Positions 2-25,995 of a stretch of 28,861 nucleotides of DNA are shown here, in pieces. The position numbers were made by a program, and so were the translations under genes. Within the stretch, counting starts at the first letter, position 1. The number at the start of each line of letters is the position of its first letter. The notes beneath the pieces were generated by a model. The model was not told the DNA's origin, did no database searches, and worked only from the letters and a program-made list of their open reading frames with translations. This stretch comes from an uncultured Myxococcales bacterium (GTDB taxonomy: Bacteria; Myxococcota_A; Polyangia; Haliangiales; Haliangiaceae): NCBI GenBank assembly GCA_938004865.1, contig CALKVT010000188.1, positions 1-28,861 of the forward strand, read 5' to 3'.

Positions 2-1375
2 ACGATCCAGAGCCTGGCCTACACGCGCAACGCCAAGGGCCTCATCACCGCGGTGTCCAGCCCGGTCGCGCACGAGGGCTGGAGCTACGGATACGACGAG
101 CTCGATCGACTGATCTCGGCGAGCAACACGTCGAGCTCGGGGGAGAGCCAGACGCTCGCGTACGACGCGATCGGCAACATCACCTACAACTCGCGGCGCG
201 GCACGTACGTCTACGGCTCGTCGCGCCCGCACGCGGTGACGGCGGCGGGCGCGAGCAGCTACACCTACGACGCGGCCGGGCTCATGACGTCGGGCGCGGG
301 GCGGACGCTGGGCTGGGACGGCGACAACCGGCTGGTGACGGTCAGCGGCGGCGGCGTGAACCTGACGTACACGTACGACGCCGACGGCGCGCGCATCCAG
401 GAGGTCGAGAACGGGATCACGCGGCGCTACTTCGGCGACAACTTCGAGCTCCAGGTCGGCGGCGCGACGCGGAAGTACGTGATGGTCGCCGACGTGCTCG
501 TCGCGCGCCGCGACGCGGGCACGGCCTACTGGGTGCACACCGATCACCTGGGCTCGATCCAGGCCGAGACCGACGCCACCGGCGGCGTGGCGCACCGCAA
601 GACCTACCGTCCGTACGGCGAGGTGCTGTCGTCGACGGGCACGCTCCAGGACGAGCCGCGCGGCTACACCGGCCAGCGCCACGACGCCTCCGGCCTCCTC
701 TTCCTGCACAACCGCTCCTACGATCCGGCGCTCGGGCGCTTCGTGTCGCCGGACCTCGTGATCGACGGCGAGGACACGGTCGGCCTCAACCGCTACGCGT
801 ACTGCAGCAACAACCCGGTCACGCGCACCGACGTCGAGGGCACGGACGACGAGCCCGAGCCCGACAAGGACAAGCAGCCGGAGAAGAAGGCCAACGGCAA
901 CTGGGTGTCGCGCGGCGTGGACGCGGCGAAGAAGAACGGCGAGTTCGCCGACGCGCCGCCCACGATCGGCGAGCCCGGCCAGGACAAGGTCCGCTACGAC
1001 TTCTACCAGAAGCCGGTGGCGGTCGCGGGCTCGCACTTCAAGGCGGTGGTCACCGACGAGTCGGGCAAGAACGTCGGCACGTACAGCCTCGCCGGCTGGG
1101 ACGCGAAGTACAACGACCCCAACCCAGGCGACGACAAGTACCGGCACGCCGGCACGATCTACAAGGACAGGGAGAGCCTCAAGAGCTTCAACGACGCGTA
1201 CATGAACATCGCCGACGGCAACCGCTACGCCGTCGGTGACTCGAACGCGGCGATGGACCACGCGATCAAGGCGGTCGGCGAGACCAAGGGCCTCTTCACG
1301 CTGTCGAACCCGCACGGGGTGCCGGCGGCGGCCTACGGCTACAACAACTTCGACTACCAGGAGCCGCAGCCGTGA
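2..1375 (+). CDS. RHS/YD-repeat polymorphic toxin, C-terminal fragment (5' end lies outside the window) with a variable C-terminal toxin domain
   Basis: The frame is open from nt 2. YD repeats are present (YDAIGNITY, YTYDAAGLMTS, TYTYDADGARIQ). The RHS core ending is present (HTDHLGSIQAETDATG...YRPYGE...RSYDPALGRFVSPD...NRYAYCSNNPV). A ~175-aa Lys/Asp-rich tail follows the core, as in polymorphic toxins. The ORF track starts at 53 with GTG, but the frame continues upstream. Confidence 0.85.
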   Translation, partial: TIQSLAYTRNAKGLITAVSSPVAHEGWSYGYDELDRLISASNTSSSGESQTLAYDAIGNITYNSRRGTYVYGSSRPHAVTAAGASSYTYDAAGLMTSGAGRTLGWDGDNRLVTVSGGGVNLTYTYDADGARIQEVENGITRRYFGDNFELQVGGATRKYVMVADVLVARRDAGTAYWVHTDHLGSIQAETDATGGVAHRKTYRPYGEVLSSTGTLQDEPRGYTGQRHDASGLLFLHNRSYDPALGRFVSPDLVIDGEDTVGLNRYAYCSNNPVTRTDVEGTDDEPEPDKDKQPEKKANGNWVSRGVDAAKKNGEFADAPPTIGEPGQDKVRYDFYQKPVAVAGSHFKAVVTDESGKNVGTYSLAGWDAKYNDPNPGDDKYRHAGTIYKDRESLKSFNDAYMNIADGNRYAVGDSNAAMDHAIKAVGETKGLFTLSNPHGVPAAAYGYNNFDYQEPQP

Positions 1376-1740
1376 GCGCGCGCTGGACCCTGGGAGCGCT
1401 GCTCGTCGCGGCCGCGGGCCTCGCGGCGCTCACGCTGCACGGGCTGCGCGCGAGCCCGGACGCGACGTCGTCGGCTCCGGCTGCCGTGTCCGCGCGCGAG
1501 GTGGACGCCGACCAGCCGCCGTCGCTCGCCGACGAGCGACCGCCGTGGGAGGTCGTGCGCGAGCGCGACACGGTGCTCCCCGCGGGCGCGGTGCCGGTCG
1601 CGCACGTGGCGGCGCCGCCGCCGGATCCGTCGACGCCGATGCCGCCGGCGTCCGTCGAGCCGCCCAACCCGGCGACCCACCGCCCGCCGCTGCACAACCC
1701 CGGCGGCGTCGACGGCGACCGCCCACCCCGCTCGCCCTGA
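1372..1740 (+). CDS. Hypothetical Pro-rich protein with an N-terminal hydrophobic anchor; candidate RHS immunity or partner protein
   Basis: Its GTG start overlaps the RHS stop (GTGA), which suggests translational coupling. Nearly every third position in this frame is G/C, so it looks coding. The N-terminal hydrophobic segment is WTLGALLVAAAGLAALTL. The rest is low-complexity and Pro-rich, so the function is uncertain. Confidence 0.4.
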   Translation: MSARWTLGALLVAAAGLAALTLHGLRASPDATSSAPAAVSAREVDADQPPSLADERPPWEVVRERDTVLPAGAVPVAHVAAPPPDPSTPMPPASVEPPNPATHRPPLHNPGGVDGDRPPRSP

Positions 1741-1762
1741 AACGGCGTCTGCCGGGCAGGCG

Positions 1763-2761
1763 TCAGTCGCAGCCGCCGTAGCGGCTAACGGCCATCGTGC
1801 CGTCGGGAGTCTCGTCGTCCTCGGGCAGCGCAGGATCGAGGTAGCCCACCAGGTAGGTGTACATCGTCATCCCGCCGTCCACCGTGGCGACCCCGGTCAC
1901 CTGCTCCATCACGCCGTCGCCGTTGGAGTCGAAGAGCGCCCGTGGCTCCGGCGCCAGGATGATCTGCGACTGCCACTCCAGGCGCGGCGTGGTGCCCGTT
2001 AGCGCGTACTCGGCGCGGAGCATGCGGGGGGCGGGGTGGCAGGATCGCTCGACCGGGTGCGCGAACCACTTCACGATCACCACCCGCGTCACGTCGTCGA
2101 AGCGGAAGCCCCACGCGGCGGCGTCGCCGCTGGCGTCATCCGGGTACTCGCGGGACAGCGCCCGATAGGCGGGCAGGGCGCGAAACGCGGTCGCCACACG
2201 CTTCAGCTCGGCGGCGTTCACGGCGATCCTGGTGCCGGCGCGCACGATGGGGCGGGGCGTGATCACGACGGGCGCGCAGCCGGCCTCCGGGCGAAGCTCG
2301 GCGACGAACGTGGGGTCGTTCTCGATCTCGGCGGCGTTGCTGGTGGCCAGCCAGAACAGGCCGGTGATCGTCGTCGCGCACGCGGTGCCATCGGCGGCGC
2401 GCGTCGCCAGGGGCTGCCCCACGATCGTCCGCCACGCCGCCGGCGCGTGGGCTGCCGCCTGGAGCATGATCCGGTGGCCGAGCTCCGACACCGGCGCCGC
2501 GCCGACCCAGTCGGTGCTCGGCTTCGAACCGTCGGCTGGCCGGTACCAGTCCTCGATCGCGACGAACCATCGCCCGTCGAGCTCGGCGACGACCATCATG
2601 TCACGATCGCCCCATGTTCCCGCGGCCGCGTCGAGGACGGCGGCGTCGCCGGCCGGCGTCGCGACCGCGTCGGACGATGTCGCCGACGCCGCGCGTTCCG
2701 GCTGCTTGCACGACGTCGACTGCGTGGCCGCGACGACGAGGATGAGGCCGAGCTGGCGCAT
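1763..2761 (-). CDS. Hypothetical lipoprotein
   Basis: ATG start. The signal peptide with lipobox is MRQLGLILVVAATQSTSC. The composition is globular and not low-complexity. It is convergent with the RHS locus. Confidence 0.6.
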   Translation of the reverse strand: MRQLGLILVVAATQSTSCKQPERAASATSSDAVATPAGDAAVLDAAAGTWGDRDMMVVAELDGRWFVAIEDWYRPADGSKPSTDWVGAAPVSELGHRIMLQAAAHAPAAWRTIVGQPLATRAADGTACATTITGLFWLATSNAAEIENDPTFVAELRPEAGCAPVVITPRPIVRAGTRIAVNAAELKRVATAFRALPAYRALSREYPDDASGDAAAWGFRFDDVTRVVIVKWFAHPVERSCHPAPRMLRAEYALTGTTPRLEWQSQIILAPEPRALFDSNGDGVMEQVTGVATVDGGMTMYTYLVGYLDPALPEDDETPDGTMAVSRYGGCD

Positions 2762-2768
2762 CAGGGAC

Positions 2769-4253
2769 CTAGCGGCGGCCGACCGGAGGTGGCTCGTAGC
2801 GCTCGACCGGGCTCGCCGTCGGCGTGCCGCCGAGGACGACGATGGTGCCGTCGCACAGGCGCGCGGCGGCGTGACCGGCGCGCGCGCGGCCGATGCGATC
2901 GGTGGTGACCGCGTCGACCGAACCGTCGAGCGGATCGAGGTTGATGATGTAAGCCGAGAGGACGGGCTCGCCCTGCGGCGTCTCTTTGCCTCCGGCGACG
3001 AGGACGCGGCCGTCGGGGAGCACGGTGATGGTCGCGTCGAGGAGGCCGGCGCCGGGCGGTAACGCGCCGGCCTCGACGAAGCCGCCGTCGATGGTGAAGA
3101 GCTCCATGGTGCGCACGGGCTGGCCGGCGGCGTCGATGCCGCCGATGAAGAGCACGCTGCCGTCGGGCATGCGCACCGCCTCGTGGCGGGCGCGGGGGAT
3201 GTTCATCGTCGGCGCGAAGCCCTGCGCGAAGCTCTCGCGCAGCGGGCGCCACAGCTCGGCGGCGGCGATGAGCGCGCCGTCGCGATCGATGCCGCCGGCG
3301 ACCAGCACCGGCGCGCCGAGGTCGTCGGAGAGGCGGGTCGCGGTGGCGGCGCGGCGCGGGATGGCCATCGTCGCGGCGAGGTCGCGGATGGCGACGGTGG
3401 CGCCGTCGCCGGCGATCTCGACCGGCGTCGCGATCGGCTCCCCGCCGACCGGGCCGCCGCCGAAGACGACGATGCGGCCGTCGCTCAGCGTCACGGCGGT
3501 CGCCCCGGCGCGCGCGAGCCGGACGTCGTCGAGGCCCTCGACGCGGCCGACCAGCGAGGTGTCGAGCTCGAAGACCTCGAGCCGCGGCGACGCCTGGAGC
3601 GTCAGCGGATCGGTGCCGCCGAGCACGACCAGGCGGCCGTCGCCGAGCGACGCATAGGTCGCGTCGCGCCGCGACGTGAGGCTCGCGACCGTCTCGAGCA
3701 CGCCGCGGTGCGGGTCGAAGCGCTCGAGGCCGGGCACCGGCTGGTCGGTCTCGTCGTCGCCGCCGGCGAAGAGGACGCTGCCGTCGCGGTACGTGATGGC
3801 GCGGCCGCCGCGGCGCACGGCCGCCGGCGAGGCGTCGACGTCGCCCCACTTGACGGTGCGCGCGAACCACAGGTGCGGCGACGGCGGCGCCGCGTCGCCG
3901 AGCGAGAAGGCGCACGTGCGGCCATACGCGACATCGCCGCCGTTGAGGCGGCCGGTCATGTGCAGGACGAGCCCGTCGCCCTCGGGCACGTCGCGCAGCT
4001 CGATGGTGTCGCCGCGCGCGAACGACGCGCTCAGGAGGTCGGTCGACGAGCCCTCGCGCGCGAGCGTGAGCACGACCTCGTCGAGATCGGGGAACGCCGC
4101 CGCGTCGCTGCCCGGCGCGGGCCCGTCGATCACCGGCGCCATGACGATGTCGTCGGGCCCGCACGCACCGAGCGCGAGCAACGCGAGGACGCGCGGTCCG
4201 TTCGCCCTGAGCGAGCAGCACCGCCGCGAGTCGAAGGGCGCGTTCACTGCCAT
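2769..4253 (-). CDS. Kelch-repeat beta-propeller lipoprotein
   Basis: Kelch blades recur with the signature DG.(I/V).V.GG (DGRLVVLGG, DGRIVVFGGG, VLVAGGIDRDG, DGSVLFIGGID, DGRVLVAGGKE, DGTIVVLGGT). The N-terminus MAVNAPFDSRRCCSLRANGPRVLALLALGAC is a lipoprotein signal. Its ATG sits 8 nt upstream of the preceding gene's stop. The 854-aa ORF in the track is an Arg-rich upstream read-through artifact. Confidence 0.8.
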   Translation of the reverse strand: MAVNAPFDSRRCCSLRANGPRVLALLALGACGPDDIVMAPVIDGPAPGSDAAAFPDLDEVVLTLAREGSSTDLLSASFARGDTIELRDVPEGDGLVLHMTGRLNGGDVAYGRTCAFSLGDAAPPSPHLWFARTVKWGDVDASPAAVRRGGRAITYRDGSVLFAGGDDETDQPVPGLERFDPHRGVLETVASLTSRRDATYASLGDGRLVVLGGTDPLTLQASPRLEVFELDTSLVGRVEGLDDVRLARAGATAVTLSDGRIVVFGGGPVGGEPIATPVEIAGDGATVAIRDLAATMAIPRRAATATRLSDDLGAPVLVAGGIDRDGALIAAAELWRPLRESFAQGFAPTMNIPRARHEAVRMPDGSVLFIGGIDAAGQPVRTMELFTIDGGFVEAGALPPGAGLLDATITVLPDGRVLVAGGKETPQGEPVLSAYIINLDPLDGSVDAVTTDRIGRARAGHAAARLCDGTIVVLGGTPTASPVERYEPPPVGRR

Positions 4254-13415: not shown

Positions 13416-16400
13416 ATGGCCAAGAAGAACGCCAAGAGCGCGAAGAGCGACTTCGAGACCGCCGCCGCCAACATCACGAGCGCACCGCATTCCACCGCGG
13501 CCTGGGACGAGATCGAGGAGCTCGCGCGCGAGCACGACAAGCCCGACGAGGTCATCACCCTCTACAACGAGATCCTGAAGAAGGGGCTCGACCCGCAGGT
13601 CGTCGAGATGATCGGCGACCGCGCCGGCGCCTTCTGTGACGAGTGGTTCGGCGACGAGCCCAAGGTCGCCGAGGGCATCCTGGGCAAGGTCCTCGAGCTG
13701 GCGCCGCAGTCGGAGTCGGCGCTGGGCCGGCTGTCGGTGCTCTACACCCAGAACGAGCGCTGGGCCGACCTCCTGCGGCTCTACGACCGCGCGCTCACCG
13801 CGGTGAAGGATCAGGGGCGGCGCATCAAGCTGCTCCGCGAGGCGGCGCAGATCGCCAAGGACGTCGCCAACCAGCCCGAGAAGGCGATCGGGTACCTGCA
13901 GCGCCTGCTCCCGCTCACCGCCGACGACGTGCAGCTCGGGCAGTCGCTGGAGCGCCTGCTCGAGCGCTACGAGCGCTGGGCCGATCTGATCGAGCTGTGG
14001 GAGGGCCGGCTCGATCGCCAGAGCAAGCTCGAGCGCGAGAAGAGCCGGGCGCGCATCTCGGCCTGCTACCTGGACAACCTGCAGGACTCGGCCAAGGCGC
14101 TGGCGGCGGTGCGCCCGCTCCTCGCCGTCGCCGACGATGACAGGGAAGCGACCGCGCTGCTCGAGCGCATCATCGAGGCCCAGCACACCCAGGAGAAGGA
14201 CCGCGAGGCCGCGCTCGACGTCCTGCGCGCGCACTACGACGCCACCAGCCGTCCGCGCGAGGTGATCCGCGTGCTCGAGCGCGTGATCGAGCTGTTCCCG
14301 GACTCGCGCAAGGCGCTGCGCGAGGAGGCCGGCGCGCGACTCGCCGAGCTCGACGACGACCGCGCCGCCATGGACCACTACGCCGAGCTCCTCGCGCTGT
14401 CGCCGGAGTCGTCGGTGACGCAGGAGAAGCTGCGCCAGCTCGCGCAGCGCTCGAACAACTTCGCGCGCTACGCCCAGGGCGTCGCCGCCGCGGCCGAGCA
14501 CGCGATCATGCCCGGGCGCAAGGTCGAGCTCCTCTCGGAGGCCGCGCGCACCAAGCTCGATCTGCTCGACGACGCCAACGGCGCGATCGAGCTCTACCAG
14601 CGCGCGCTCGAGCTGCCCGGTGCGGGCGCGAAGGAGCAGCTCCCGGTGTGCCGGCGGCTCTCCGAGCTGTACCTGCGCGTCGACCGGCCGCGCGAGCGGT
14701 TCGCCATCCTCGAGCGCCTGGCCGGGCTCGAGCCCGCCGACGCCACCCGCCGCGCCGTCATCGGCGAGGCCGCGCGCCTGGCGGAGACCCTGGGCGAGAC
14801 CGACAAGGCGCTCTCGCTGTGGCGGCAGCGCATCGAGCGCGATCCCGACGATCTCGCCGCGATCGACTCGTCGATCCTCCTGCTCGAGACGTCGCAGCGC
14901 TGGCCGGAGCTGGTCGCCGCGCTCGACATGCGCTCGCAGAAGAACGTGTCGACGGCGCAGAGGCGCACCGACCTCACGCGGATCGCGGTCGTGTACCGCG
15001 ACCACATCAAGGACGCCGAGAAGGCGATCGCCGCGTGGCAGCGGGTGCAGCAGGCGTTCGGCGACGACGCCGAGACGGTCGGCGCGCTGACCGAGCTGCT
15101 CTCCGAGGTCTCGCGCTGGAGCGAGCTCGCCGAGCTGCTCGAGCGGGCGAGCGGCAAGGACGTGGCGCGCACGACGCGGCGGCTCAACAAGCTCGGCGAG
15201 GCGCTGGGCACGCACCTCGGCGAGCCGGGGCGCGCGCTGACCGCGTATCGCGCGGCGCTCGCGATCGATCCGGTGAACGACGAGGCCCGCGCCGGCCTGC
15301 TCACGCTGCTCGATTCGCCGGCGCACCGCCGCGCCGCCGCCGACGCGCTCGCGGTGAGCTACCGCGAGAACCAGGACTGGGCCGGCTTCCTCAAGCTCCT
15401 CCCGTCGCGCCTCGCCGACGCGCCCGACGACCGCACCCGGCTCGCGCTGCTGCGCGAGGCCGCGTACATCCAGCTCAACAACACCGGCGATCCGGCCGGC
15501 GCGCTCGACAGCCTGGCGCGCGCGTTCCCGCTCGCGCCGCGCGACGGCGTGATGGAGGGACAGATCCTCGATCTCGCGCAGCAGACCGGCAAGCTGCCGG
15601 TGGCCGATCAGGCGCTCGCCGCGGCCATCGACGCGCTCGCCGAGGATCCGGCCGAGCAGTCGCGGCTGCGCCTGGTGCGCGCCGAGCTGCTCGAGAAGAA
15701 GATCGGCGACGAGGCCGGCGCCCTGGCCGAGTACCTGATCGTCTTCCGCCGCGATCACGCGAACACCACCGCCGCGACCGGCGTCGTGTGGCTGGCCCCC
15801 AGGAAGGGGCAGTGGGCCGACGCGGCGCAGGCGGTGCTCGGCTTCGCTGCCGCCAAGGAGCGGCTCGACGACGGGCTCTTCGGTCACTACGCCAAGGCCG
15901 GCGAGGAGGCGCTCGAGGCGGCGGTGACCGCGCTCGAGGAGGCCGCGCCCAAGGCCGGGCTCCCGCCCGCGGTCGCGGCGCAGGTGTGGTCGCTCATCGG
16001 CGTGTGGCAGCGCGATCGCCGCGGCGACAAGGCCGCCGCGGTCACCGCCTTCAACAAGTCGCTCACCGCCGGCGGTGATCGCGCGGACACCTTGCGCGCC
16101 GTCGCCGAGCTCTTGCGGCCCGGGGGGCCGAGCGCGTCGCTCCTCGACGTCCTGCGCCGGCTATCCGATGCCGATCCGCGTGATCTCGACGTGCTCGTCG
16201 AGGCCGCGGACACCGCGAGCCGTCAGGGGGATCGCGACGCCTCGGTCACGATCCTCGGCCAGGTGCTCGGCCGCGCCACCGGCGCGTGGCGCGGGTCGTC
16301 GTCGGTCCAGTCGTCGCGCCCACCGGAGGCGGTCGTGCGCTGGGCGATCGACGGGCTCGTCGATCTCCACCGCTCCGCCGGCCGGCCCCGCGTCGCCGTC

Positions 16401-19400
16401 GACCTGCTCGTCGAGTCGGCGCGCCTGCCGTTCGACCCGGAGACGCGGCGCGATCTGCGCATGCGCGCCGCCGCGATGGCGTCGAGCGAGCTGCACGACA
16501 ACGCCGCCGCGATCGACATGTACCGCGGCGTGCTCGCCGACAGCCCCGGCGATCTCGACATCATCGCGCGCCTCGGCGCGCTGCTCGAGACCGAGAAGCG
16601 CTACGCCGAGCTCCTCGGCCTGCGCCACACCCAGCTCGGCCTCGAGTCCGACCCGGCGCGCCGGCTCGAGCTCCGCCTCGACATCGCCCGCCTGGTCGGG
16701 GTCGTCGAGGAGACCGGCGGCCGCTACGAGTCGCTGATCGCCAACCTCGCCGATCAGCCCGGCCACGACGCGTCGATCGACGCGGCCCACGCCTTCCTCG
16801 GCGGACGCGGTCAGCACAAGGCGCTCGCCGACCTGCTCGAGGAGCAGGCCGCCAAGGTCGAGGGCGCCGGCGAGGCCGCGCGCGCGGCCAAGCTGTGGGC
16901 GCGGTTCGCCGCGGTCACCGAGAAGGAAACGCGCGAGACCGATCGCGCGATCATGGGCCACAAGCGCGTGGTCAAGCTCGCGCCGACCCAGGACTCGCTG
17001 CGGGCGCTCGCGCGCCTCCAGCTCGAGCGCAAGCAGCCGGCGCAGGCGGTGCCCTGGTTCGAGAGCCTGCTCTCGACGGTGCAGGGCGCCGAGCGGCTGG
17101 CCGTGCTCGACCAGCTCGCGCGCGCGCACATCGCGGCCGAGCAGGAGGACCGCGCGATCGCGACGATCGAGGCCGCGCTCGACGACCGCGAGCCCGCGCT
17201 CGACCTGCGCCTCCTCCTCGCCGACCTCTACCGCAAGGGCGAGCAGTGGGAGCCGCTGGCGCGGCACCTGACGCGCTCGCTGGCGCTGTTCGGCGACGAG
17301 CGCGGGCGCGAGCTCGCGCGCGAGGCCGCGTCGATCTACACCGACAAGCTCGACGCCCCGGCCAAGGCCATCCCCGCGCTGGAGAAGGCGCTCGCGCTCG
17401 ATCCGACCGACAAGGAGATGCGCGCGAACCTGGCGATCGGCCTGCGCGTCGCCGGCCGCCTGTCCGAGGCGCGCGCCATCCTCACCGAGCTCATCGAGGC
17501 CTTCGGTCGTCGCCGCGCGCCCGAGCGCGCGCAGCTCCACGTCGAGCTGGCCAAGGTCGCCCACGCCGAGGGCAAGAACGACGAGGCGCTCTCCGAGATG
17601 GAGGCGGCGTCCAAGATGGACGTCCACAACACGCGCATCCAGCGCGAGCTCGCCGAGCTGTGCCGCGCCGCCGGTCAGGTCGACAAGGCGGAGCGCACGT
17701 ACCGCGCGCTGCTCCTCGTCGTGCGCCGGCAGCCGCCGGGTGATGACGAGACCGCGGTCGGCCAGAGCGAGGTGCTCTTCGAGCTCTCGCGCCTCGCCGC
17801 CGGTCACGGCGAGACCAGCCAGGCCAAGGAGCTCCTGGAGAGCGCGATCGACGCCGCGGTGCAATCCGACGGCGAGGTCCGCCGCCTGCGCCGCAGCCTG
17901 ATCGCACACGGCGAGCCGGAGACCTTGCTCCGCGTGCTCGAGCTGCGGCTCGGCGCGACCAGCGAGGCGGCGAGCCAGGCGCGGCTCTACGGCGACATGG
18001 CCGACGTGCTCGACGGCTCGCTCGGGCGAACGAGCGACGCGCTCGACGCCGCGATCAAGGCGTTCAACCTGGCGCCGTCGCGTCTGGACCTGCTCGAGAA
18101 GGCGCGGCAGCTCGCCCGGAAGTCGGGCGGCACCAAGAAGTTCGTCGAGGCGGTCGAGGCGGTCGTCGAGCGGCTGCGCCGCAAGGACGATCCGCCGCTG
18201 GTCGCGTCGGTCCTCCTCAAGGCCGGCGAGGCGCTCGAGAACGACGCCGACGATCTGGCCGGTGCGGCGGCGATGTACCGCCGCGTCGAGATGCTCGGCG
18301 AGCGGCTGGCCGAGGCGTACTACGCGCAGGCCCGCGTCGCGGGCGCGCTCGGCGATGACGAGCAGCAGGCGCGGGCGCTCGACAACATGCTCCAGCTCGC
18401 CGGCGGCGCCGATGGCGATGCCTCTCCGGCGCAGGTCGACGCGCTCTACCGTCTCTCCGAGATCTTCATCGCCAACCCGGCGCGCCGCGCGCAGGGCATC
18501 GAGCTGATCGAGCGCGCCTTCGCGGCCGAGCCGCGCTGGGCTCAGGCCGGACGCGTCCTCCGCGGCGCGTCGAGCGCCGATCCGGGCGATGCGCGGGTGA
18601 TGGCGCTCTACGAGCGCGTCGCGCGCAACGGCGGCGACAACGAGCTCCTGCTCGACTTCCTCGAGAAGCGGGCGCAGCAGCCGGGCGCGACGTCGGCGCA
18701 GGTCCGCGAGGCCGTCGACCTCGCGGTCGAGACCGGTCAGGAGCAGCGCGCCGAGAGCCTGCTCCAGCGCGCGGTGCAGGCCGCGCGCGACTCCGCCGAC
18801 GGCGTCGGCGGGGCGGTGTGGGCGGTCCTCTCGCTCACCGACCGCCGGGTCGCGGCGGGCGATCTCGCGTCGGCGCGCGAGCTGGTCTACGAGATCATCG
18901 GTGTCGCCGAGCCCGCGGACATGGATCCGCTGATCGGGCGCGTGGCCGCGCGCGCCGCGGCGGACAAGGCGACGCAGCCGCTCGCCGCCGAGATGTACGA
19001 GCTCCTGCGCGAGCGCGCGCCCTCGGAGCGGACGGTGTGGGAGCCGCTGGTCGCGCTCTACCGCGACATGGGCGACGGCGACCGGCTGGCGAGCGTCATC
19101 TCGTCGACGCTGCCGACCTTGACCGATCCGCAGGAGCGCAACTCGCTCCGTCGCGCCCACGCCACGTACCTCATCGAGACGCTCGACCGTCCGCACGACG
19201 CCGCCGACGTCCTGCGCGACGCGCTGCAGGACGACCCCGACGATCTCGCGGCCGCCGGCGCGCTCGAGCGGACGCTGCGCGCGCTCGGCGACGACGACGG
19301 GCTCGCCGAGTTCCTGTGGGCGCGCTTCGACGACGCCGTCCGCCGCGGCAACCGCGAGAGCACGCTCGACGTCGCCGCGCGCCTCGGTCCGCTGGTCGAG

Positions 19401-21200
19401 TCGACCGGTGGTAACGCGGCGCGGGTGTATCGGGCCGCGCTCGAGATCGCTCCCGACGACCGCGAGCTGCTGCGCCGTGTCGTCAGCGGGATCACGCCCG
19501 AGGACGATCCGCGCGAGTCGGCGGCGCTCATGGAGCGCCTGCTCGCCGTCGAGACGCCCGAGGCGGCGCCGGCCCTGTGCTGGAGCCTGGCGTCGGCGTA
19601 CGAGCAGGCGGAGGACTGGGCCGGCGTGCAGCGCACGCTCGCCGCCGCGCACAAGGCGGCGCCCGGGGACCAGGCGATCCACGACCGGCTCGAGCAGTTC
19701 TACCGCGACAGCCAGCAGTGGAAGGAGCTGGCCGAGCTCATGACCAGCGACGCGGAGCGCGCGACCGACGCCGCCGTCGCGGTCGACCGGCTGCGCGAGG
19801 CGTCGGCGGTCTACACCGGCTTCCTCGGGCAGCCGCTGCTCGCCGCCGAGGCCCTGCGCGCGGCGCGGGCGCGTCAGCCCGAAGCGCCGGCCCTGTCGGC
19901 GGAGCTGGCGGCGGCCCTGGCCGCGGCCGGCGATCACCGCGGCGCCGTGACGTCGCTCGGCGAGGCCCTCGATCCGTGGTCCGGCGACAACGGCGAGAGC
20001 CAGCCGGCGCCGGTGCAGGGCGCCGCGCGGGTCGATCTCCTGCTCCTGCGCGCGAGCCTGCGCCAGCAGCTCGGCGAGGAGGACACGGCGGTCATCGATC
20101 TCGACGACGCGTACAAGCTCGACGGGCCGCGCGCGGCGGCCGCCCTCTCCGAGGGGCTCGAGCGCATGCGCGCGCGGGCCGAGGCCGCAGGGGACATGGC
20201 GAGCGAGCGCACCGCGACCTTGCGGCTCGCCCAGCTCCTCGGCGAGCACGGCGACCTCGAGCGGGCGCGCGATCTGCTCGTCATGTGGATCGAGCGGATG
20301 CCGAGCGATCCCGACCCGCTCTACATCCTGCGCGACATGGACGCCGGCATCGAGCACTGGGACGGCGTGATCGCGGCGTGCACGCGGCTCGCGTACATCG
20401 TCGAGGGCGAGGCGCAGGTGCAGGCGGCGCTCGACGTCGCCGACGCGTCGGCGCGCGCCGGCAAGCCCGGCGACGCGATCGGCGTGCTCGAGATGGTGCA
20501 CCAGGTGCAGCCGGGCGCGGAGACGATCCGCGTCAAGCTGCGCGAGCAATACGAGGCCGCGGGGGCGCACGGTCAGCTCGCCGCGATCCTCATGACCGAC
20601 GCCGAGCACGCGGCCGACGCCGACGCCAAGTTCGCCGCGTACAAGCGCGCCGCCGAGCTGTACCTGGCGGCGGGCGACGCGGCGGCGGCGTCGGTGCCGG
20701 CGGGCAAGGCGGCGGAGCTCGCGCCCGACGATCACCAGACCGCGATGCTGCACGTCGACATCCTCATCGGCTCCGGCCGCACGGAGGAGGCGGCCAGTGC
20801 GCTCGAGACGGCGATCGCGGCGCAGAAGAAGCGCACGCCCGAGCTCGCGACCATGCAGCAGCGCATGGGCCGGGTCGCCGGCATGCTCGGGGATCGCGAC
20901 GGTCAGCTCGGATGGCTGAAGAAGGCGTTCGACGTCGATCGCAAGAACGGCGAGATCGCCGCCGAGCTGGCGCAGCTCGCGACCGAGACCGGCGACTACG
21001 AGCTCGCGCTCAAGCCGCTGCGCGCGATCACGCTGATGGACAACCCGCTGCCGATCACGCGGCCGATGGCGCTCCTCTGGGAGGCCAAGATCGAGCACGC
21101 GCGCGGCAACCGCGCCAAGGCGGAGCTCTGGGCCAAGAAGGCGCTGCGCGAGGACCCTCAGTTCCACGAGGCGCAGCAGTTCCTGGACGAGCTGGCCTGA
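13416..21200 (+). CDS. Giant (2594 aa) all-alpha TPR-repeat protein with no signal peptide; probable cytoplasmic scaffold
   Basis: It is a single uninterrupted 7.8 kb ORF with strong GC3 bias and an SD (gaggga) 5 nt upstream of the ATG. TPR signature positions W4-L7-G8-Y11 recur throughout ([90 protein letters not shown]). Many A-x-x-Y/AL-x-L-D-P motifs are present. I see no catalytic motif. Confidence 0.85.
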
Positions 21201-21397: not shown

Positions 21398-23206
21398 ATG
21401 CAGCGTCGCAGCGTGCTCTCCCTCGCGCTCGTCGCCGGTTGCTCGTTCACGCCGTCCGGATCCACCGGCGACGACGACGGCGACGGCGGCACCGACGACG
21501 CCGGCAACCGGACCGTGCTCCTGCGCGACGACTCCGCCGACGACTTCGCCGTCGTCGGCGCGGTGACCGACAACGCCGTGATCGAGCCGTGGGGCGCGGT
21601 CGCGCCGGCCGCCTTTCACGCCGGCGGGCTGCGCGCGCACGCCGCCAACACGCAGCGCTTCACCGAGCCCGACCTCGCGACGTGGACGATCGTCACCGGC
21701 GGGGGCGCCAACGGCACGGGGCTCTGGACCCGCCCGCTCGTCGGCGATCCGGTCGGCGTCGGGCTCGACTCGGGCGACACGTGGACCTACTGGGCCGAGG
21801 GCGAGGTCTGGCTCGACGCGGGGACGACGACCTTCCTCGTCGACGCCGACGACGCCGGCTTCCTCGAGATCGCCGCGCCGGGCGGCGAGTTCACCCGCGT
21901 CGTCAACGCGCGCTACGGCATCGCGTCGGGGATGTACACCGCGGCGACCGCCGGCTGGCACGCGATCCGCCTCGCCGTCGTCGAAGGGATCGGCGCATCG
22001 CGCTTCGACGTGCAGCTCTACGTCGGCGCCAGCGCGACGCCGGAGCCGCTCGCCGGGCCGCGGCTGCGCACGCGCGTCGACGCGCTGCGCGGCATGCTGC
22101 TCGCCGGCTGGGACAACTCGCTCTTCCAGGGCACGCCCGAGCACACGGTGTCCGACGCCGCGCTCGTCGACGCCCGCTTCCAGAACGGCGCGCCCGTCGG
22201 GGTCGGCATCGGCTCCTCCGATTTCTGGTCGCTCCGCTGGAGCGGCCAGTTCTACGTCACCACGCCCGGCACGTACTCGCTGCGCGTCGAGTCGGACGAC
22301 GGGCACCGCCTGTACGTCGGCGGCCAGCTCGTCACCGACGCGCTCTTCGGCGGTCCCGTCGATCGCACGGTCTCGGTCGCGCTCGTCGCGGGCTGGAACG
22401 ACCTCGTCCTCGACCTGAACGAGAACACCGGCGACGCCAGCGCGCGCCTGCGCGTGGTCGGCGGACCCGAGCCCGGCCTCGAGGCCGAGCTGCCGCTCGC
22501 GCGCCTGCGCCCGCTCGCGCCCCGCGACGAGCGCCTCGAGACCGTCGGCGACGGCAACGATCTCGGCATCCCCGACAACGACCCGAACGGCGTCACCCGC
22601 GCGGTACGCATCGCGGGGCTGCCGGGCGCCACCGTGGGGTCGGTCGACGTGATCATCGGCCTCAACCACCCGCGCATCGCCGATCTGCAGGTACGCCTCG
22701 TCCACCCCGGTGGCAACGAGGTGCTCCTGCGCAACAACTCGTCCGAGGGCGGCAGCGGCCCGCGCACGCTGCGCTTCACCACCGAGATGTTCGACGACAC
22801 GCCCGCCGCTGGCGAGTGGCGCGTGCGCGTGACCGACACCCAGAACGCGCAATCGGGGTCACTCACCGACGTGCAGCTCGCCGTGCACATGGCCAACGGC
22901 CCCGAGCAGGTCGCGACCACCGCGAGCTACACCTCCGACGTTCGCGACCTCGGCGAGGGCGTGGTCGCGCTCGACACGATCCGTCTCGGCGCGCGCGTGC
23001 CGGCGGGCGCCGCTGTCGCCGTGCGTCTCCGCGGCTGCGACGCACCGGAGGCTTGCGCCGGCGAGCCGTGGTCGGCGCCGCTCGCCGACGGCGACGCGCC
23101 CGGCCTGCCGCCGCGTCGCTACCTCCAGTACCGGCTCGAGCTCACCAGCGACGGCGCACGCGAGCCCGAGGTCGACTCCGTCGAGCTCGCGTATCGGCTG
23201 CCCTGA
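21398..23206 (+). CDS. Lipoprotein with PA14-like domains and a proprotein-convertase P-domain (no catalytic domain)
   Basis: The lipoprotein signal is MQRRSVLSLALVAGCS. One PA14-like segment is FWSLRWSGQFYVTTPGTYSLRVESDDGHRLYVGGQLVTD. A second is WTYWAEGEVWLDAGTTTFLVDADDAGFLEI. The P-domain-like region is VDVIIGLNHPRIADLQVRLVHPGGNEVLLRNNSSEGG...FDDTPAAGEWRVRVTDTQNAQSGSLTDVQLAV. Confidence 0.75.
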   Translation: MQRRSVLSLALVAGCSFTPSGSTGDDDGDGGTDDAGNRTVLLRDDSADDFAVVGAVTDNAVIEPWGAVAPAAFHAGGLRAHAANTQRFTEPDLATWTIVTGGGANGTGLWTRPLVGDPVGVGLDSGDTWTYWAEGEVWLDAGTTTFLVDADDAGFLEIAAPGGEFTRVVNARYGIASGMYTAATAGWHAIRLAVVEGIGASRFDVQLYVGASATPEPLAGPRLRTRVDALRGMLLAGWDNSLFQGTPEHTVSDAALVDARFQNGAPVGVGIGSSDFWSLRWSGQFYVTTPGTYSLRVESDDGHRLYVGGQLVTDALFGGPVDRTVSVALVAGWNDLVLDLNENTGDASARLRVVGGPEPGLEAELPLARLRPLAPRDERLETVGDGNDLGIPDNDPNGVTRAVRIAGLPGATVGSVDVIIGLNHPRIADLQVRLVHPGGNEVLLRNNSSEGGSGPRTLRFTTEMFDDTPAAGEWRVRVTDTQNAQSGSLTDVQLAVHMANGPEQVATTASYTSDVRDLGEGVVALDTIRLGARVPAGAAVAVRLRGCDAPEACAGEPWSAPLADGDAPGLPPRRYLQYRLELTSDGAREPEVDSVELAYRLP

Positions 23207-23238: not shown

Positions 23239-23400
23239 TTCGCTGTCGACCAGGAGTTGTGCCGGGAGTATCCGGATTTCGTGGTCGTAGGGAGGTGAAA
23301 CTACCGGAATCGCACGAAGGTTCACCTCGGCACGATCGCTGCAAAAGACGTGGTGGAGATCACCAACTTTGCAGCGCGTCAAACGCGCGGAGGAGAGCCC

Positions 23401-24171
23401 ATGTCGTTCCTGCGCTCCGGCCTGTGTCTCGGATTCCTGCTGACGGCGTGTGCGGCGGAGGACGAGAGGGCAGGAGATGGGCCGCTGCGGATCACCGAGC
23501 TCGACGAGCGGACGATCGCGGGCTCGTTCGAGCACGGGACCTCCGTGGTGTCGTTCGAGAGCTGGTCGACCGATCAGCGGATCGCGCACCTCCGCATCGA
23601 CGTCGACGGGGCGACGATCGAGGCGACGTTCGACAGCGCCGGCGTCCTGACCGAGGACGGCAAGCTGAACGCCGTGTACGCCGAGGACAAGGCCGCGCTC
23701 GTCGCGCTCCGCGACGCCGTGCAGACGGAGCACCCCGAGGTCGTCGGTTCGCTCCAGGGCATGTTCCTCACCCGGCACGCCGAGTGGATCGCCGAGGCGC
23801 CCGAGGGCTACACGTTCGGCCTGCGCATGGTCGACGTGCGCGACCGGGTCGAGGACCGCACGACCTGGGACGATGACAAGGACACGACGTGCCTGTGGCC
23901 CGGCCGCTGGTACCGCGCGTACTACGACTACGGCAACAACGGCCAGCAGTGGTACTGGGATCGCCAGGCGAACTCGGGGAGCTGCCTCGGTCGCTGCGGC
24001 GCCGGCTGCAACTGGTTCGACGACGACATCATGCTCGACTGCTTCGAGCACGACACCTGCCTCGATCACTTCGGTGGCAGCTCGCTCGGCGGGAACCCGA
24101 ACTGCGGCGACGAGTACGACCACGCGGTGGCCGAGTACATCGTGACCTACGCCGCGTGGTGTCCGTACTGA
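23401..24171 (+). CDS. Lipoprotein with a Cys-rich C-terminal domain (unknown function)
   Basis: ATG start with the strong SD ggaggag. The signal/lipobox is MSFLRSGLCLGFLLTAC. The C-terminal third has about 10 Cys (CLWPGRWY...SGSCLGRCGAGCNWFDDDIMLDCFEHDTCLDHF...NPNCGDEY...AAWCPY). Confidence 0.6.
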   Translation: MSFLRSGLCLGFLLTACAAEDERAGDGPLRITELDERTIAGSFEHGTSVVSFESWSTDQRIAHLRIDVDGATIEATFDSAGVLTEDGKLNAVYAEDKAALVALRDAVQTEHPEVVGSLQGMFLTRHAEWIAEAPEGYTFGLRMVDVRDRVEDRTTWDDDKDTTCLWPGRWYRAYYDYGNNGQQWYWDRQANSGSCLGRCGAGCNWFDDDIMLDCFEHDTCLDHFGGSSLGGNPNCGDEYDHAVAEYIVTYAAWCPY

Positions 24172-24178
24172 TCGCGCG

Positions 24179-25213
24179 GTGAGCCGCTCGCGGCCGATCA
24201 TCGGTGGTGTGCCGGCGCCGGAGGACGATGCCGTCGTCGCGGTCCTGGCGCGCCGCACCCTCTGCGACGGGCCCGAGCAGGTGATCTGCTCGGGCACGCT
24301 CGTCGGTCCGCGCGCCGTGCTCACCGCCGCGCACTGCCTCGGCGGGCGCGAGCCGGACGAGCTCGAGGTGCTGATCGGCGACACGGCGAGCGCGCCGGCC
24401 ACCGTGCTCGCCGTCTGGGGCGCCGCCGTCCACCCCGGCTACGACGCAGGCGCTCCGGCCGAGACCTCGCCCGATCTGATGGTGCTCTTCCTCGAGGGCG
24501 ACGCTGGCGTGACGCCCGCCGTGCCGGCCGACGTCGCGGCCGCCGAGCTCGTCACCGGCGCGCAGGTGCAGCTCGTCGGGTTCGGCGCGACGACGATCGG
24601 CGGTGACCTCGGCGTCCGCGTCTCCGGGCGCGCGACCGTCGACGTCGTCGGCGGGGTCTCGTTCTCGACCGGCGCGAGCGCGGTGCCGTGCGGCGGCGAC
24701 TCGGGTGGCGCGGCGCTGCTCGAGACCGCGGCCGGGCCACGCCTGATCGGCGTGATCAAGGGCAGCGGCGCGGGCTGCGCGGACCAGGGGCTCGTGGTTC
24801 GCGTCGACGCGGCGTACGACACGTTCCTGGCGCCGGCGCTGGCGGCGGCGCCTCCACCGCCGGAGCGACCGCCGTTCGATCCGTCCGTCGCGTACTGCGC
24901 GGAGCCGTGCGGCGAGCACGCCGACTGTCCGCTCGGCATGCTCTGCCTGCCGGGTGCGGACGGCGCGCACTGCGGCTACCGCGAGGCTCGCACCGTCGCG
25001 GTCGGCGCCACGTGCGATGGCGCGAGCACGTCCTGCGTCCCCGTCGGTCAGGGGCTCGCGCGCGAATGCCGCGAGCTGCTCGCGTCGTGCCCCGCGCCGC
25101 CCGCGACCGGTGGCTGTGGTGCGGCGCCCGGCGGTGAAGCCGGTTTGGCGGCGCTGATCGCGGTCGCGCTGATGCGCCGCGCGCGGCGGCCTGCTGCTAC
25201 CTTCGCGCGATGA
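24179..25213 (+). CDS. Trypsin-like (S1 family) serine protease with a Cys-rich linker and a MYXO-CTERM-like C-terminal sorting signal; N-terminus anomalous (no signal peptide)
   Basis: IIGG lies near the N-terminus. The catalytic triad motifs are TAAHC (His), DLMVLFL (Asp) and GDSGG (Ser). The C-terminus GGCGAAPGGEAGLAALIAVALMRRARRP matches the MYXO-CTERM pattern of a Cys, a hydrophobic helix and an Arg cluster. The GTG start has no SD and sits only 7 nt after the upstream stop. Confidence 0.8.
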   Translation: MSRSRPIIGGVPAPEDDAVVAVLARRTLCDGPEQVICSGTLVGPRAVLTAAHCLGGREPDELEVLIGDTASAPATVLAVWGAAVHPGYDAGAPAETSPDLMVLFLEGDAGVTPAVPADVAAAELVTGAQVQLVGFGATTIGGDLGVRVSGRATVDVVGGVSFSTGASAVPCGGDSGGAALLETAAGPRLIGVIKGSGAGCADQGLVVRVDAAYDTFLAPALAAAPPPPERPPFDPSVAYCAEPCGEHADCPLGMLCLPGADGAHCGYREARTVAVGATCDGASTSCVPVGQGLARECRELLASCPAPPATGGCGAAPGGEAGLAALIAVALMRRARRPAATFAR

Positions 25214-25995
25214 GCGCAGCCGTACGCTTCGAGGTCGAGGACACGATCGGCGTCATCACGCTGGACCGCCCCGACAACCGCAACAGCATGACGCCCGAGC
25301 TGCTCGACGCCTTCGCGTCGGCGGTGGCCGCGGCGCGCGTCGCCGCGGATCTGCGCTGCGTCGTCATCACCGGCACCGGCGCCTGCTTCTCGGCGGGCGC
25401 CGACTTCAAGTCGGTGCTCCAGCGCGACGATGGCGGCGCGTGGCGCGCGCCGCACGAGAAGAGCTTCGCGATGTACCAGCCGTTCCTCGGCGTCCTCGAC
25501 CTCACCGTCCCGGTGGTGGCGGCGCTCAACGGCCACACCGTCGGCGGCGGCTTCGGGCTCGCCATGTGTTGCGACATCCGCATCGGCGCGCGCACCGCGA
25601 AGTACGGCGCCAACTTCACCCGCCTCGGGCTCGCGCCGGGCATGGCCATCAGCTACATCCTGCCGCGCCTCGTCGGCGTCTCCCGCGCCGCCGAGATGCT
25701 GTTCACCGGCCGCCTCGTCGACGGCGACGAGGCCGAGCGCATCGGCCTCCTCACCGCCGTCGACACCGCCGACGTCCTGCCGCGCGCGATGGACCTCGCC
25801 CGCGCCATCGCCGCCAGCGCCCCCGTCGCCGTGCGCGAGACCAAGCGCGCCCTCTACCGCGGCCTCGGCTGGGACCCGCGCGGCGCCGCCTACCTCGAGT
25901 CCTTCGCCCAGGCCGAGTCGGTCGTCACCGCCGACGCCGCCGAGGGCATCGCCGCGCTCCTCGAGAAGCGCGAGCCCCGCTTCACCGGCCGCTGA
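25210..25995 (+). CDS. Enoyl-CoA hydratase/isomerase (crotonase) family protein
   Basis: The crotonase fold motifs are ITLDRPDNRNSM, the oxyanion-hole region CFSAGADF and NGHTVGGGFGLAMCCDIRI. The ATG overlaps the protease stop (ATGA). Confidence 0.9.
   Translation: MSAAVRFEVEDTIGVITLDRPDNRNSMTPELLDAFASAVAAARVAADLRCVVITGTGACFSAGADFKSVLQRDDGGAWRAPHEKSFAMYQPFLGVLDLTVPVVAALNGHTVGGGFGLAMCCDIRIGARTAKYGANFTRLGLAPGMAISYILPRLVGVSRAAEMLFTGRLVDGDEAERIGLLTAVDTADVLPRAMDLARAIAASAPVAVRETKRALYRGLGWDPRGAAYLESFAQAESVVTADAAEGIAALLEKREPRFTGR

Follow-up and report, generated by a model that had tools for sequence, protein, structure and literature searches.

The window, a stretch of 28,861 nt from an uncultured Myxococcales bacterium (Haliangiaceae; contig CALKVT010000188.1 of GenBank assembly GCA_938004865.1), contains two adjacent open reading frames (ORFs): ORF A, which encodes a DUF8213 lipoprotein, and ORF B, which encodes an S1 protease with a Cys-rich linker and a MYXO-CTERM-type sorting tail and without a signal peptide. 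ORF A and ORF B are two genuine and intact genes; on balance, ORF B is probably translated independently, in coupling to ORF A, into a product that still belongs to the envelope. The family of ORF B comprises myxobacterial S1 proteases with a MYXO-CTERM tag, most of which have a short lipoprotein-type signal. What is new, judged by comparison of loci, is a set of such surface proteases that appear to have lost the signal peptide repeatedly and whose genes, with one exception among 16 loci, begin where a lipoprotein gene ends.

The junction is laid out as an earlier inspection of the DNA letters (the sequence-only reading) had described it. The GTG start of ORF B comes 7 nt after the stop codon of ORF A (Table 1), no Shine-Dalgarno-like sequence was found in this 7-nt spacer, and the protease frame is closed by a TGA 36 nt upstream of the GTG. 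This TGA, 11 codons 5' of the start and also present in the two closest loci, L083 and L003, makes an in-frame N-terminal extension impossible, whichever start codon is considered. The protein begins MSRSRP-IIGG, with only six residues before IIGG, and no signal peptide was recognized. Because ORF B lies in the +1 frame relative to ORF A, a 1-nt change within 24146-24168 would fuse the two, as that inspection had also pointed out. Since a Shine-Dalgarno-like sequence is missing, a start by termination-reinitiation is indicated: ribosomes finishing the lipoprotein ORF would reinitiate at the GTG of ORF B. As far as the sequence can tell, the junction fits coupling of this kind.

For comparison, 160 related loci were fetched from genomes and metagenomes, plus ten by exact-protein look-up, and their reading frames were inspected. 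Three of the fetched loci are redundant: L085 and L086 sample L009 and L010 a second time, and L084 is a copy of L005. Besides the window, 15 loci (14 distinct sequences; L003 to L010, L083, L163, L164, L087, L063, L079, and L072) encode a signal-less protease that is 32 to 67% identical to ORF B. Their starts lie 3 to 6 codons before IVGG, and up to 14 in the most distant. None of the 12 closest signal-less relatives (46 to 67% identity) has a signal peptide. Most of the closest protein-database homologs begin M-x-x-P-[LIV]-[IV]-G-G, and the residue preceding IVGG is nearly always Pro across the proteases. Upstream of IVGG, the frame is closed within 3 to 16 codons in the window, L083, L003, and L009, and the other signal-less loci have an Arg/Ala/Pro-rich out-of-frame sequence there. 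Counted from the start codon, the open stretch in those four loci measures just 3 to 11 codons. A signal peptide hidden upstream or in another frame was rejected, as the DUF8213 and peptidyl-prolyl isomerase (PPIase) genes run at full length up to the protease start.

Nearly every more distant relative (approximately 27 to 40% identity; from Corallococcus, Archangium, Myxococcus, Sorangium, and others) has a short signal of the lipoprotein type, followed by 10 to 15 residues and IVGG, and a crude scan detected a signal-like hydrophobic stretch in 107 of the 134 evaluable loci. In a neighbor-joining tree of the proteases, signal-less forms occupied at least three positions. The signal therefore appears to have been lost in the clade of the window and in at least two other branches, which makes loss on at least three occasions probable. 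A whole-library profile search added more clusters (50% identity) that are apparently signal-less, at least about nine of them within the top 150 representatives of the family (P0063, P0064, P0081, P0092, P0113, P0172, P0186, P0206, and P0107). These start a few residues before IVGG, show no hydrophobic signal, and retain hydrophobic, Arg-rich tails.

After curation, 15 signal-less loci out of 16, counting the window, have the protease start within -10 to +7 nt of the stop codon of an upstream lipoprotein gene. The genes are joined by ATGA, GTGA, or TGATG overlaps or separated by 1 to 7 nt, ATGA and GTGA being usual. It should be noted that the automated comparison of upstream spacing was crude and was curated manually; it had given L087 a wrong start and had missed the signal peptides of L113, L150, and L151. 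The identity of the upstream partner varies: it is a DUF8213 protein, a parvulin PPIase (Pfam Rotamase), or an unrelated 171-residue lipoprotein. In L004 to L010, L163, and L164, the operon consists of DUF8213, a lipoprotein of approximately 290 residues with a PpiC/parvulin PPIase domain, and the protease, whose ATG or GTG overlaps the PPIase stop codon as ATGA or GTGA (TGATG in L005) in the -1 frame. At the junctions of the window, L083, and L003, the PPIase gene is absent. In L087, which belongs to another branch (39% identity), the signal-less start overlaps the stop codon of the unrelated 171-residue lipoprotein gene as GTGA. In L063 and L079 (Polyangiaceae, 32 to 34% identity), it follows a DUF8213-like lipoprotein gene in frames -1 and 0, respectively. 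Counted over the signal-less loci, three junctions have the +1 relation, at least 11 the -1 relation, and a single one the 0 relation.

The sequence-only reading had considered ORF A and ORF B as possible halves of a single gene, split by a sequencing error or an inactivating mutation or bridged by programmed frameshifting. The comparison of orthologs, named beforehand as the test to refute a split gene, revealed two separate genes, with the signal-less protease translated on its own. An error of sequencing or assembly is effectively refuted, and so is the recent inactivation of a once-fused ORF by a frameshift. A change of 1 nt would be sufficient to fuse the ORFs, and the locus in the window and in two other public assemblies, 100% identical to it over 5 to 7.5 kb, may stem from one shared dataset, so that the copies demonstrate a reproducible assembly and do not independently confirm the sequencing. 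However, orthologs at 55 to 67% identity exhibit the same two-ORF junction. L083 (protease 67% and DUF8213 79% identical) and L003 (55% and 72%) keep the layout ...AWCPY-TGA, a short spacer, and an NTG-AGC start in the +1 frame, the aligned spacers of the window, L083, and L003 being 7, 7, and 1 nt, at a synonymous divergence (dS) of 0.7 to 0.9 among the three loci. Both genes are under purifying selection, and the ratio of nonsynonymous to synonymous divergence (dN/dS) is 0.33 to 0.54 for signal-less protease pairs and 0.31 to 0.39 for signal-bearing pairs.

Homologs of the two proteins argue in the same direction. None of 60 (26 protease and 34 DUF8213 homologs) is a DUF8213-protease fusion. 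The protease homologs from the protein database have 318 to 381 residues, the only longer one being an unrelated protein of 592 residues, and the 34 DUF8213 homologs have 239 to 304. A C terminus of the type ...AWCP(Y) is common to DUF8213 proteins of loci without a protease downstream, i.e., stand-alone genes, and by this comparison ...AWCPY is evidently the native end of ORF A.

Recoding at the junction is very unlikely for similar reasons. It would require some ribosomes to shift by +1 at or before the ORF A stop (e.g., at UAC UGA U), yielding a DUF8213-protease fusion of about 60 kDa that uses the lipoprotein signal peptide and contains the junction peptide ...AAWCPY-x-RAVSRSRPIIGG (ORF A end and ORF B side, ...AAWCPY/DRAVSRSRPIIGG). 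The protease frame is indeed open from 24146, such that a +1 shift anywhere in 24146-24171 would produce the fusion, and L083 and L003 share this +1 relation. A GGTG a few nucleotides 5' of the stop could pair with the anti-Shine-Dalgarno sequence, but the conserved Trp-Cys codons of DUF8213 dictate these letters. No slippery sequence permitting tRNA re-pairing in the P site was present in 24146-24171 or at the ATGA junctions of relatives, the RNA downstream of the junction showed no unusual stimulatory structure (fold z = -1.05), and no Rfam match was obtained at the junction at E <= 1. A promoter and terminator scan of the locus returned nothing relevant. Other signal-less lineages use the -1 or 0 frame behind different upstream genes, and with frame relations of +1, -1, and 0, no single recoding mechanism explains the signal-less loci. 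By comparison, a start codon of the protease has been kept at this position in each of the 16 loci and in every lineage, as independent termination-reinitiation predicts.

Stop-codon read-through was also considered for the window and rejected, because ribosomes reading through the TGA would stay out of the protease frame. L079 is the only locus in which read-through would yield a fusion; its DUF8213-like gene shares one frame with the signal-less protease, and only TGA-ATC precedes the GTG (3947-3955).

Apart from its N terminus, ORF B encodes a typical member of its family. Residues 7 to 211 match Pfam Trypsin (PF00089) with 70.8 bits (cutoff, 20.6) across profile positions 1 to 215 of 220, profile position 1 being aligned with residue 7, the first of IIGG. 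The suggestion of an abrupt, mature-type start was therefore confirmed. This alignment also disposes of IIGG as a double-glycine leader, as IVGG is the canonical S1 N terminus. The catalytic residues H52, D99, and S175 (in TAAHC, D, and GDSGG) are invariant in 21 family members. So are 13 Cys residues, which comprise the classical S1 disulfide positions, eight in the linker (C244, C250, C256, C265, C279, C286, C297, and C304), and C313 of the sorting tag; C240 is nearly invariant. An AlphaFold2 model (mean predicted local distance difference test score [pLDDT], 81) has the canonical double beta-barrel of trypsin, with residues 1 to 6 disordered, a structured Cys-rich module modeled as small beta hairpins (pLDDT 81 to 89), and a terminal helix. 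Its best Foldseek match was Saccharopolyspora erythraea trypsin (E = 2e-14; template modeling [TM] score of 0.78 on the target). The tail, GGCGAAPGGEAGLAALIAVALMRRARRP, can be divided into GGC-GAAPGGEAG-LAALIAVALM-RRARRP, with a helix predicted for residues 322 to 334. The Cys-rich linker and the three-part build of a MYXO-CTERM-like tail, both proposed from the letters, are present in the sequence; on the profiles, the tail scores just under the threshold, with 19.7 bits on TIGR03901.2 (cutoff, 20) and 14.3 on TIGR03382 (cutoff, 15.85). Tails of signal-less orthologs exceed these cutoffs, with 22.8 (P0011) and 25.6 bits (P0004) on TIGR03901.2 and 20.5 (P0002) on TIGR03382.

Where the protease acts is a separate matter. 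Ordinarily, nothing predicts a cytoplasmic protein as strongly as a missing signal peptide, and the default bioinformatic conclusion would be that ORF B is not exported and has an intracellular role, either soluble or tail-anchored with its N terminus inside. A lone C-terminal hydrophobic helix is the very definition of a tail-anchored protein, and the disordered six-residue N-terminal extension of the model could keep the enzyme zymogen-like. Nevertheless, we consider a cytoplasmic enzyme unlikely. All 13 invariant Cys residues, i.e., the S1 disulfide pairs, the Cys-knot-like linker, and the tag Cys, match those of the signal-bearing relatives without exception. By the positive-inside rule, the Arg-rich stretch that follows the helix points to an N-out, C-in orientation. 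Moreover, dN/dS is not relaxed compared with secreted relatives, and the neighboring genes are those of envelope proteins (lipoproteins, a parvulin, and an S41 protease). The invariant disulfide-type Cys residues, the catalytic triad, the lipidation Cys of the tag, and the dN/dS values together suggest that the protease still works outside the cytoplasm.

How such a protein would leave the cytoplasm is a matter of speculation. Our favored guess is that the unfolded mature domain is translocated by Sec, triggered in trans by the signal peptide of the cotranslated upstream lipoprotein. A somewhat broader proposal is that the signal-less MYXO-CTERM protease is exported by virtue of the physical coupling of its translation to that of the upstream lipoprotein gene, with the lipoprotein signal opening or triggering the Sec translocase in trans or the terminating ribosome staying at the translocon; we regard it as unlikely. 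If true, it would amount to a natural shared signal peptide within an operon, evolved repeatedly in one protease family. According to PMC5412566 (citing Gouridis 2009 and Derman 1993), mature secretory domains have translocase-targeting signals of their own, are capable of complete translocation in vitro with a signal peptide supplied in trans, and are exported in vivo, without a signal, by prl mutants. Hitchhiking on the twin-arginine translocation (Tat) system was rejected: no upstream lipoprotein has a twin-arginine motif, and their signals are of the Sec type, which takes Tat out of consideration.

Several observations weigh against a coupled, exported protease. L072 is signal-less and yet separated from its upstream gene by an 80-nt gap, on a contig of approximately 3.5x coverage. 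By a crude estimate, about one-third of the signal-bearing relatives also lie within -30 to +12 nt of the stop codon of an upstream same-strand ORF, and tight adjacency may have arisen incidentally, through the deletion by which the signal was lost. Close DUF8213 homologs occur alone or with a PPIase only, without an S1 protease, and a dedicated partnership is therefore not required. The tree of the proteases is a neighbor-joining tree with no support values, and we infer the envelope localization from conservation only. Triggering in trans is known only in vitro. We know of no pathway that exports a 300-residue domain without an N-terminal signal; to our knowledge, translocation of signal-less N-terminal domains is limited to short tails. 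Finally, 35 of 35 MYXO-CTERM proteins of Myxococcus xanthus have signal peptides (PMC11980579).

The arrangement of the two genes is also reminiscent of an effector-immunity pair, in which a contact-dependent system (type VI or similar) would carry the protease into the periplasm of a neighbor, with the lipoprotein(s) shielding the producer. Known type VI pairs of this kind that act in the periplasm consist of a signal-less hydrolase gene tightly coupled to a periplasmic lipoprotein gene, and a signal-less hydrolase of the disulfide type with a coupled gene for a periplasmic lipoprotein fits this layout. Furthermore, the window contains an RHS-repeat ORF (53-1375). However, the MYXO-CTERM tag is retained, scoring at threshold, and the protease starts at IVGG, with no N-terminal delivery domain. 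The annotated neighbors included no gene for VgrG, PAAR, Hcp, or an adaptor. DUF8213 also occurs alone, and the linkage of DUF8213 and PPIase genes to signal-bearing relatives as well speaks against immunity tied to delivery. We give this possibility only a slim chance.

The idea of a novel chaperone-protease pair, raised by the sequence-only reading, was supported in part. A coupled pair is what the gene organization amounts to, but since the DUF8213 family is also found alone or linked to a PPIase only, it is not a dedicated pro-domain or chaperone of the protease. ORF A itself starts with MSFLRSGLCLGFLLTAC, in which the lipobox LTAC (LLTAC, residues 13 to 17) was located by reading of the sequence. 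The signal peptide has no twin-arginine motif, and N termini of the lipoprotein type are kept among DUF8213 homologs. The GGAGGAG upstream of ATG 23401 supports this codon, rather than GTG 23350, as the start. In the C-terminal domain, the columns C195, G197, R198, C199, G200, C203, D213, C214, H217, D218, C220, C235, and C254 are invariant. This domain is poorly modeled (pLDDT 31 to 60). A Pfam scan with it gave nothing at E <= 10, and a PDB sequence profile search gave zero matches. GRCGxGC...DCxxHDxC may recall secreted phospholipase A2, with its Ca-loop motif and its His-Asp motif of the active site, but neither the Pfam nor the PDB search supported this likeness, and the model was too poor for a fold comparison. 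A literature search returned no papers on DUF8213.

Table 1. Features of ORF A, ORF B, and their junction in the window
Feature	Position (nt)	Strand	Basis
Shine-Dalgarno-like GGAGGAG, 5 nt 5' of the ORF A ATG	23389-23395	+	Sequence reading
ORF A, DUF8213 (PF26641) lipoprotein, 256 residues	23401-24171	+	Precomputed Pfam annotation, exact protein
Putative lipoprotein signal peptide of ORF A, MSFLRSGLCLGFLLTA, with lipobox Cys17 (codon 23449-23451)	23401-23451	+	Sequence reading
DUF8213 N-terminal domain, residues 28-150, six-strand meander sheet and two helices	23482-23850	+	
DUF8213 Cys-rich C-terminal domain, residues 160-256, with invariant motifs GRCGxxC and DCxxHDxC	23878-24168	+	
TGA closing the protease frame upstream, within GTG-ACC (Val-Thr) codons of ORF A	24143-24145	+	
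Junction: ORF A stop TGA (24169-24171), spacer TCGCGCG (7 nt), GTG start of ORF B (from 24179)	24169-24181	+	
ORF B, signal-less S1 (trypsin-fold) protease with Cys-rich linker and MYXO-CTERM-type tail, 344 residues	24179-25213	+	
S1 catalytic domain, residues 7-211; His52 (24332-24334), Asp99 (24473-24475), Ser175 (24701-24703)	24197-24811	+	
Cys-rich linker, residues 240-304	24896-25090	+	Invariance across family; AlphaFold2 model
MYXO-CTERM-type tail: GGC signature (Cys313, 25115-25117), hydrophobic helix, Arg cluster	25109-25210	+	
ATGA overlap of the protease stop and the start of the enoyl-CoA hydratase (ECH_1) gene (25210-25995)	25210-25213	+	

The locus has further neighbors on both sides. 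Downstream, the overlap with the ECH_1 gene shows that 4-nt overlaps are routine in this operon, even with a gene for a cytoplasmic enzyme; ECH_1 is coupled to the end of an operon for envelope proteins. Upstream of ORF A lies a gene for a lipoprotein with PA14 and proprotein-convertase P domains (21398-23206). Its homolog in L003 (5093-6925) is located 3' of the protease, and this linkage is therefore conserved in a rearranged order. A 2,594-residue ORF (13416-21200) lies 5' of the PA14 lipoprotein gene and has only faint, weak precomputed Pfam matches of the TPR type. The RHS-repeat ORF, which begins close to the left end of the window, could represent the C-terminal portion of a polymorphic toxin of the Rhs/YD type. 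No gene for a myxosortase (MrtX or MrtC) or a type II secretion system was seen within the 28.9-kb window.

Genes for DUF8213-like proteins, PPIases, and S1 proteases are linked in several orders among the relatives, signal-bearing loci included. The three form a conserved module in L004 to L010, L163, L164, L166, L168, and L169 (e.g., with the PPIase gene at 3099-4001 in L007), L166, L168, and L169 (approximately 46 to 50% identity) having the same operon order and retaining the lipoprotein signal on the protease. A PPIase gene is also present in L011 (6161-6913), L016 (7360-8163), and L028 (6894-7787). In many relatives, a gene for an S41 tail-specific (C-terminal processing) protease is located directly 3' of the S1 protease (L007, 5048-7183; L163, 5038-7158; L164, 3738-5864), and in L170 such a gene (940-3063, minus strand) adjoins a stand-alone DUF8213 gene. 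An S41 protease could process C-terminal tails; none was found near the locus of the window.

The characterized systems closest to ORF B include the MYXO-CTERM surface hydrolases of Myxococcota (TIGR03901; myxosortase dependent; model substrates, TraA and MXAN_4924; protease, MepA), with which it shares the tripartite tag and Cys-rich modules. Its signal-bearing relatives from Corallococcus, Archangium, Myxococcus, and Sorangium are standard members of this group. The MYXO-CTERM proteins of M. xanthus have an N-terminal signal peptide and enter through Sec, whereas the clade of ORF B has no signal. Both the sorting route (PMC11980579) and the normal presence of a signal peptide (PMC11980579; bioRxiv 10.1101/2023.06.07.544157) have been described. 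VesB and VesC of Vibrio cholerae are trypsin-like S1 proteases, and VesB likewise combines an S1 domain, a mature N terminus of the IVGG type, and a C-terminal tripartite surface-anchoring tag. Sequence matches of ORF B to VesC (6bqm, E = 2.7e-6) and VesB (4lk4, E = 2.6e-4) are weak but significant. The VesB tag is GlyGly-CTERM, handled by a rhomboid protease (rhombosortase) and the type II secretion system, in contrast to the MYXO-CTERM tag of ORF B and its CPBP protease. VesB presumably has a signal peptide and a propeptide, and we know of no coupled upstream lipoprotein gene for it. The closest solved structures, those of S. erythraea trypsin (PDB 5dk1 and 4m7g; 29% identity, TM score of 0.78), share the TAAHC and GDSGG motifs and, unlike ORF B, have neither a Cys-rich linker nor a sorting tag. 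Actinomycete secreted trypsins are classical pre-pro enzymes. PrsA/SurA-type lipoprotein foldases of the PpiC type are known beside secreted proteases; most ORF B relatives have an overlapping upstream PPIase of this type, and the window and its two closest relatives lack one.

Proteins with LPXTG, PEP-CTERM, GlyGly-CTERM, and MYXO-CTERM tags are all thought to enter their sorting routes through an N-terminal signal peptide, and the signal-less clade challenges this view of the entry step. For annotation, the locus serves as a warning that a missing signal peptide beside a tight gene junction does not imply a frameshift. Either the protease acts in an unexpected compartment, or its route to the envelope lies outside current models. 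As a compact system of two or three genes, it could show whether translational coupling can replace a signal peptide.

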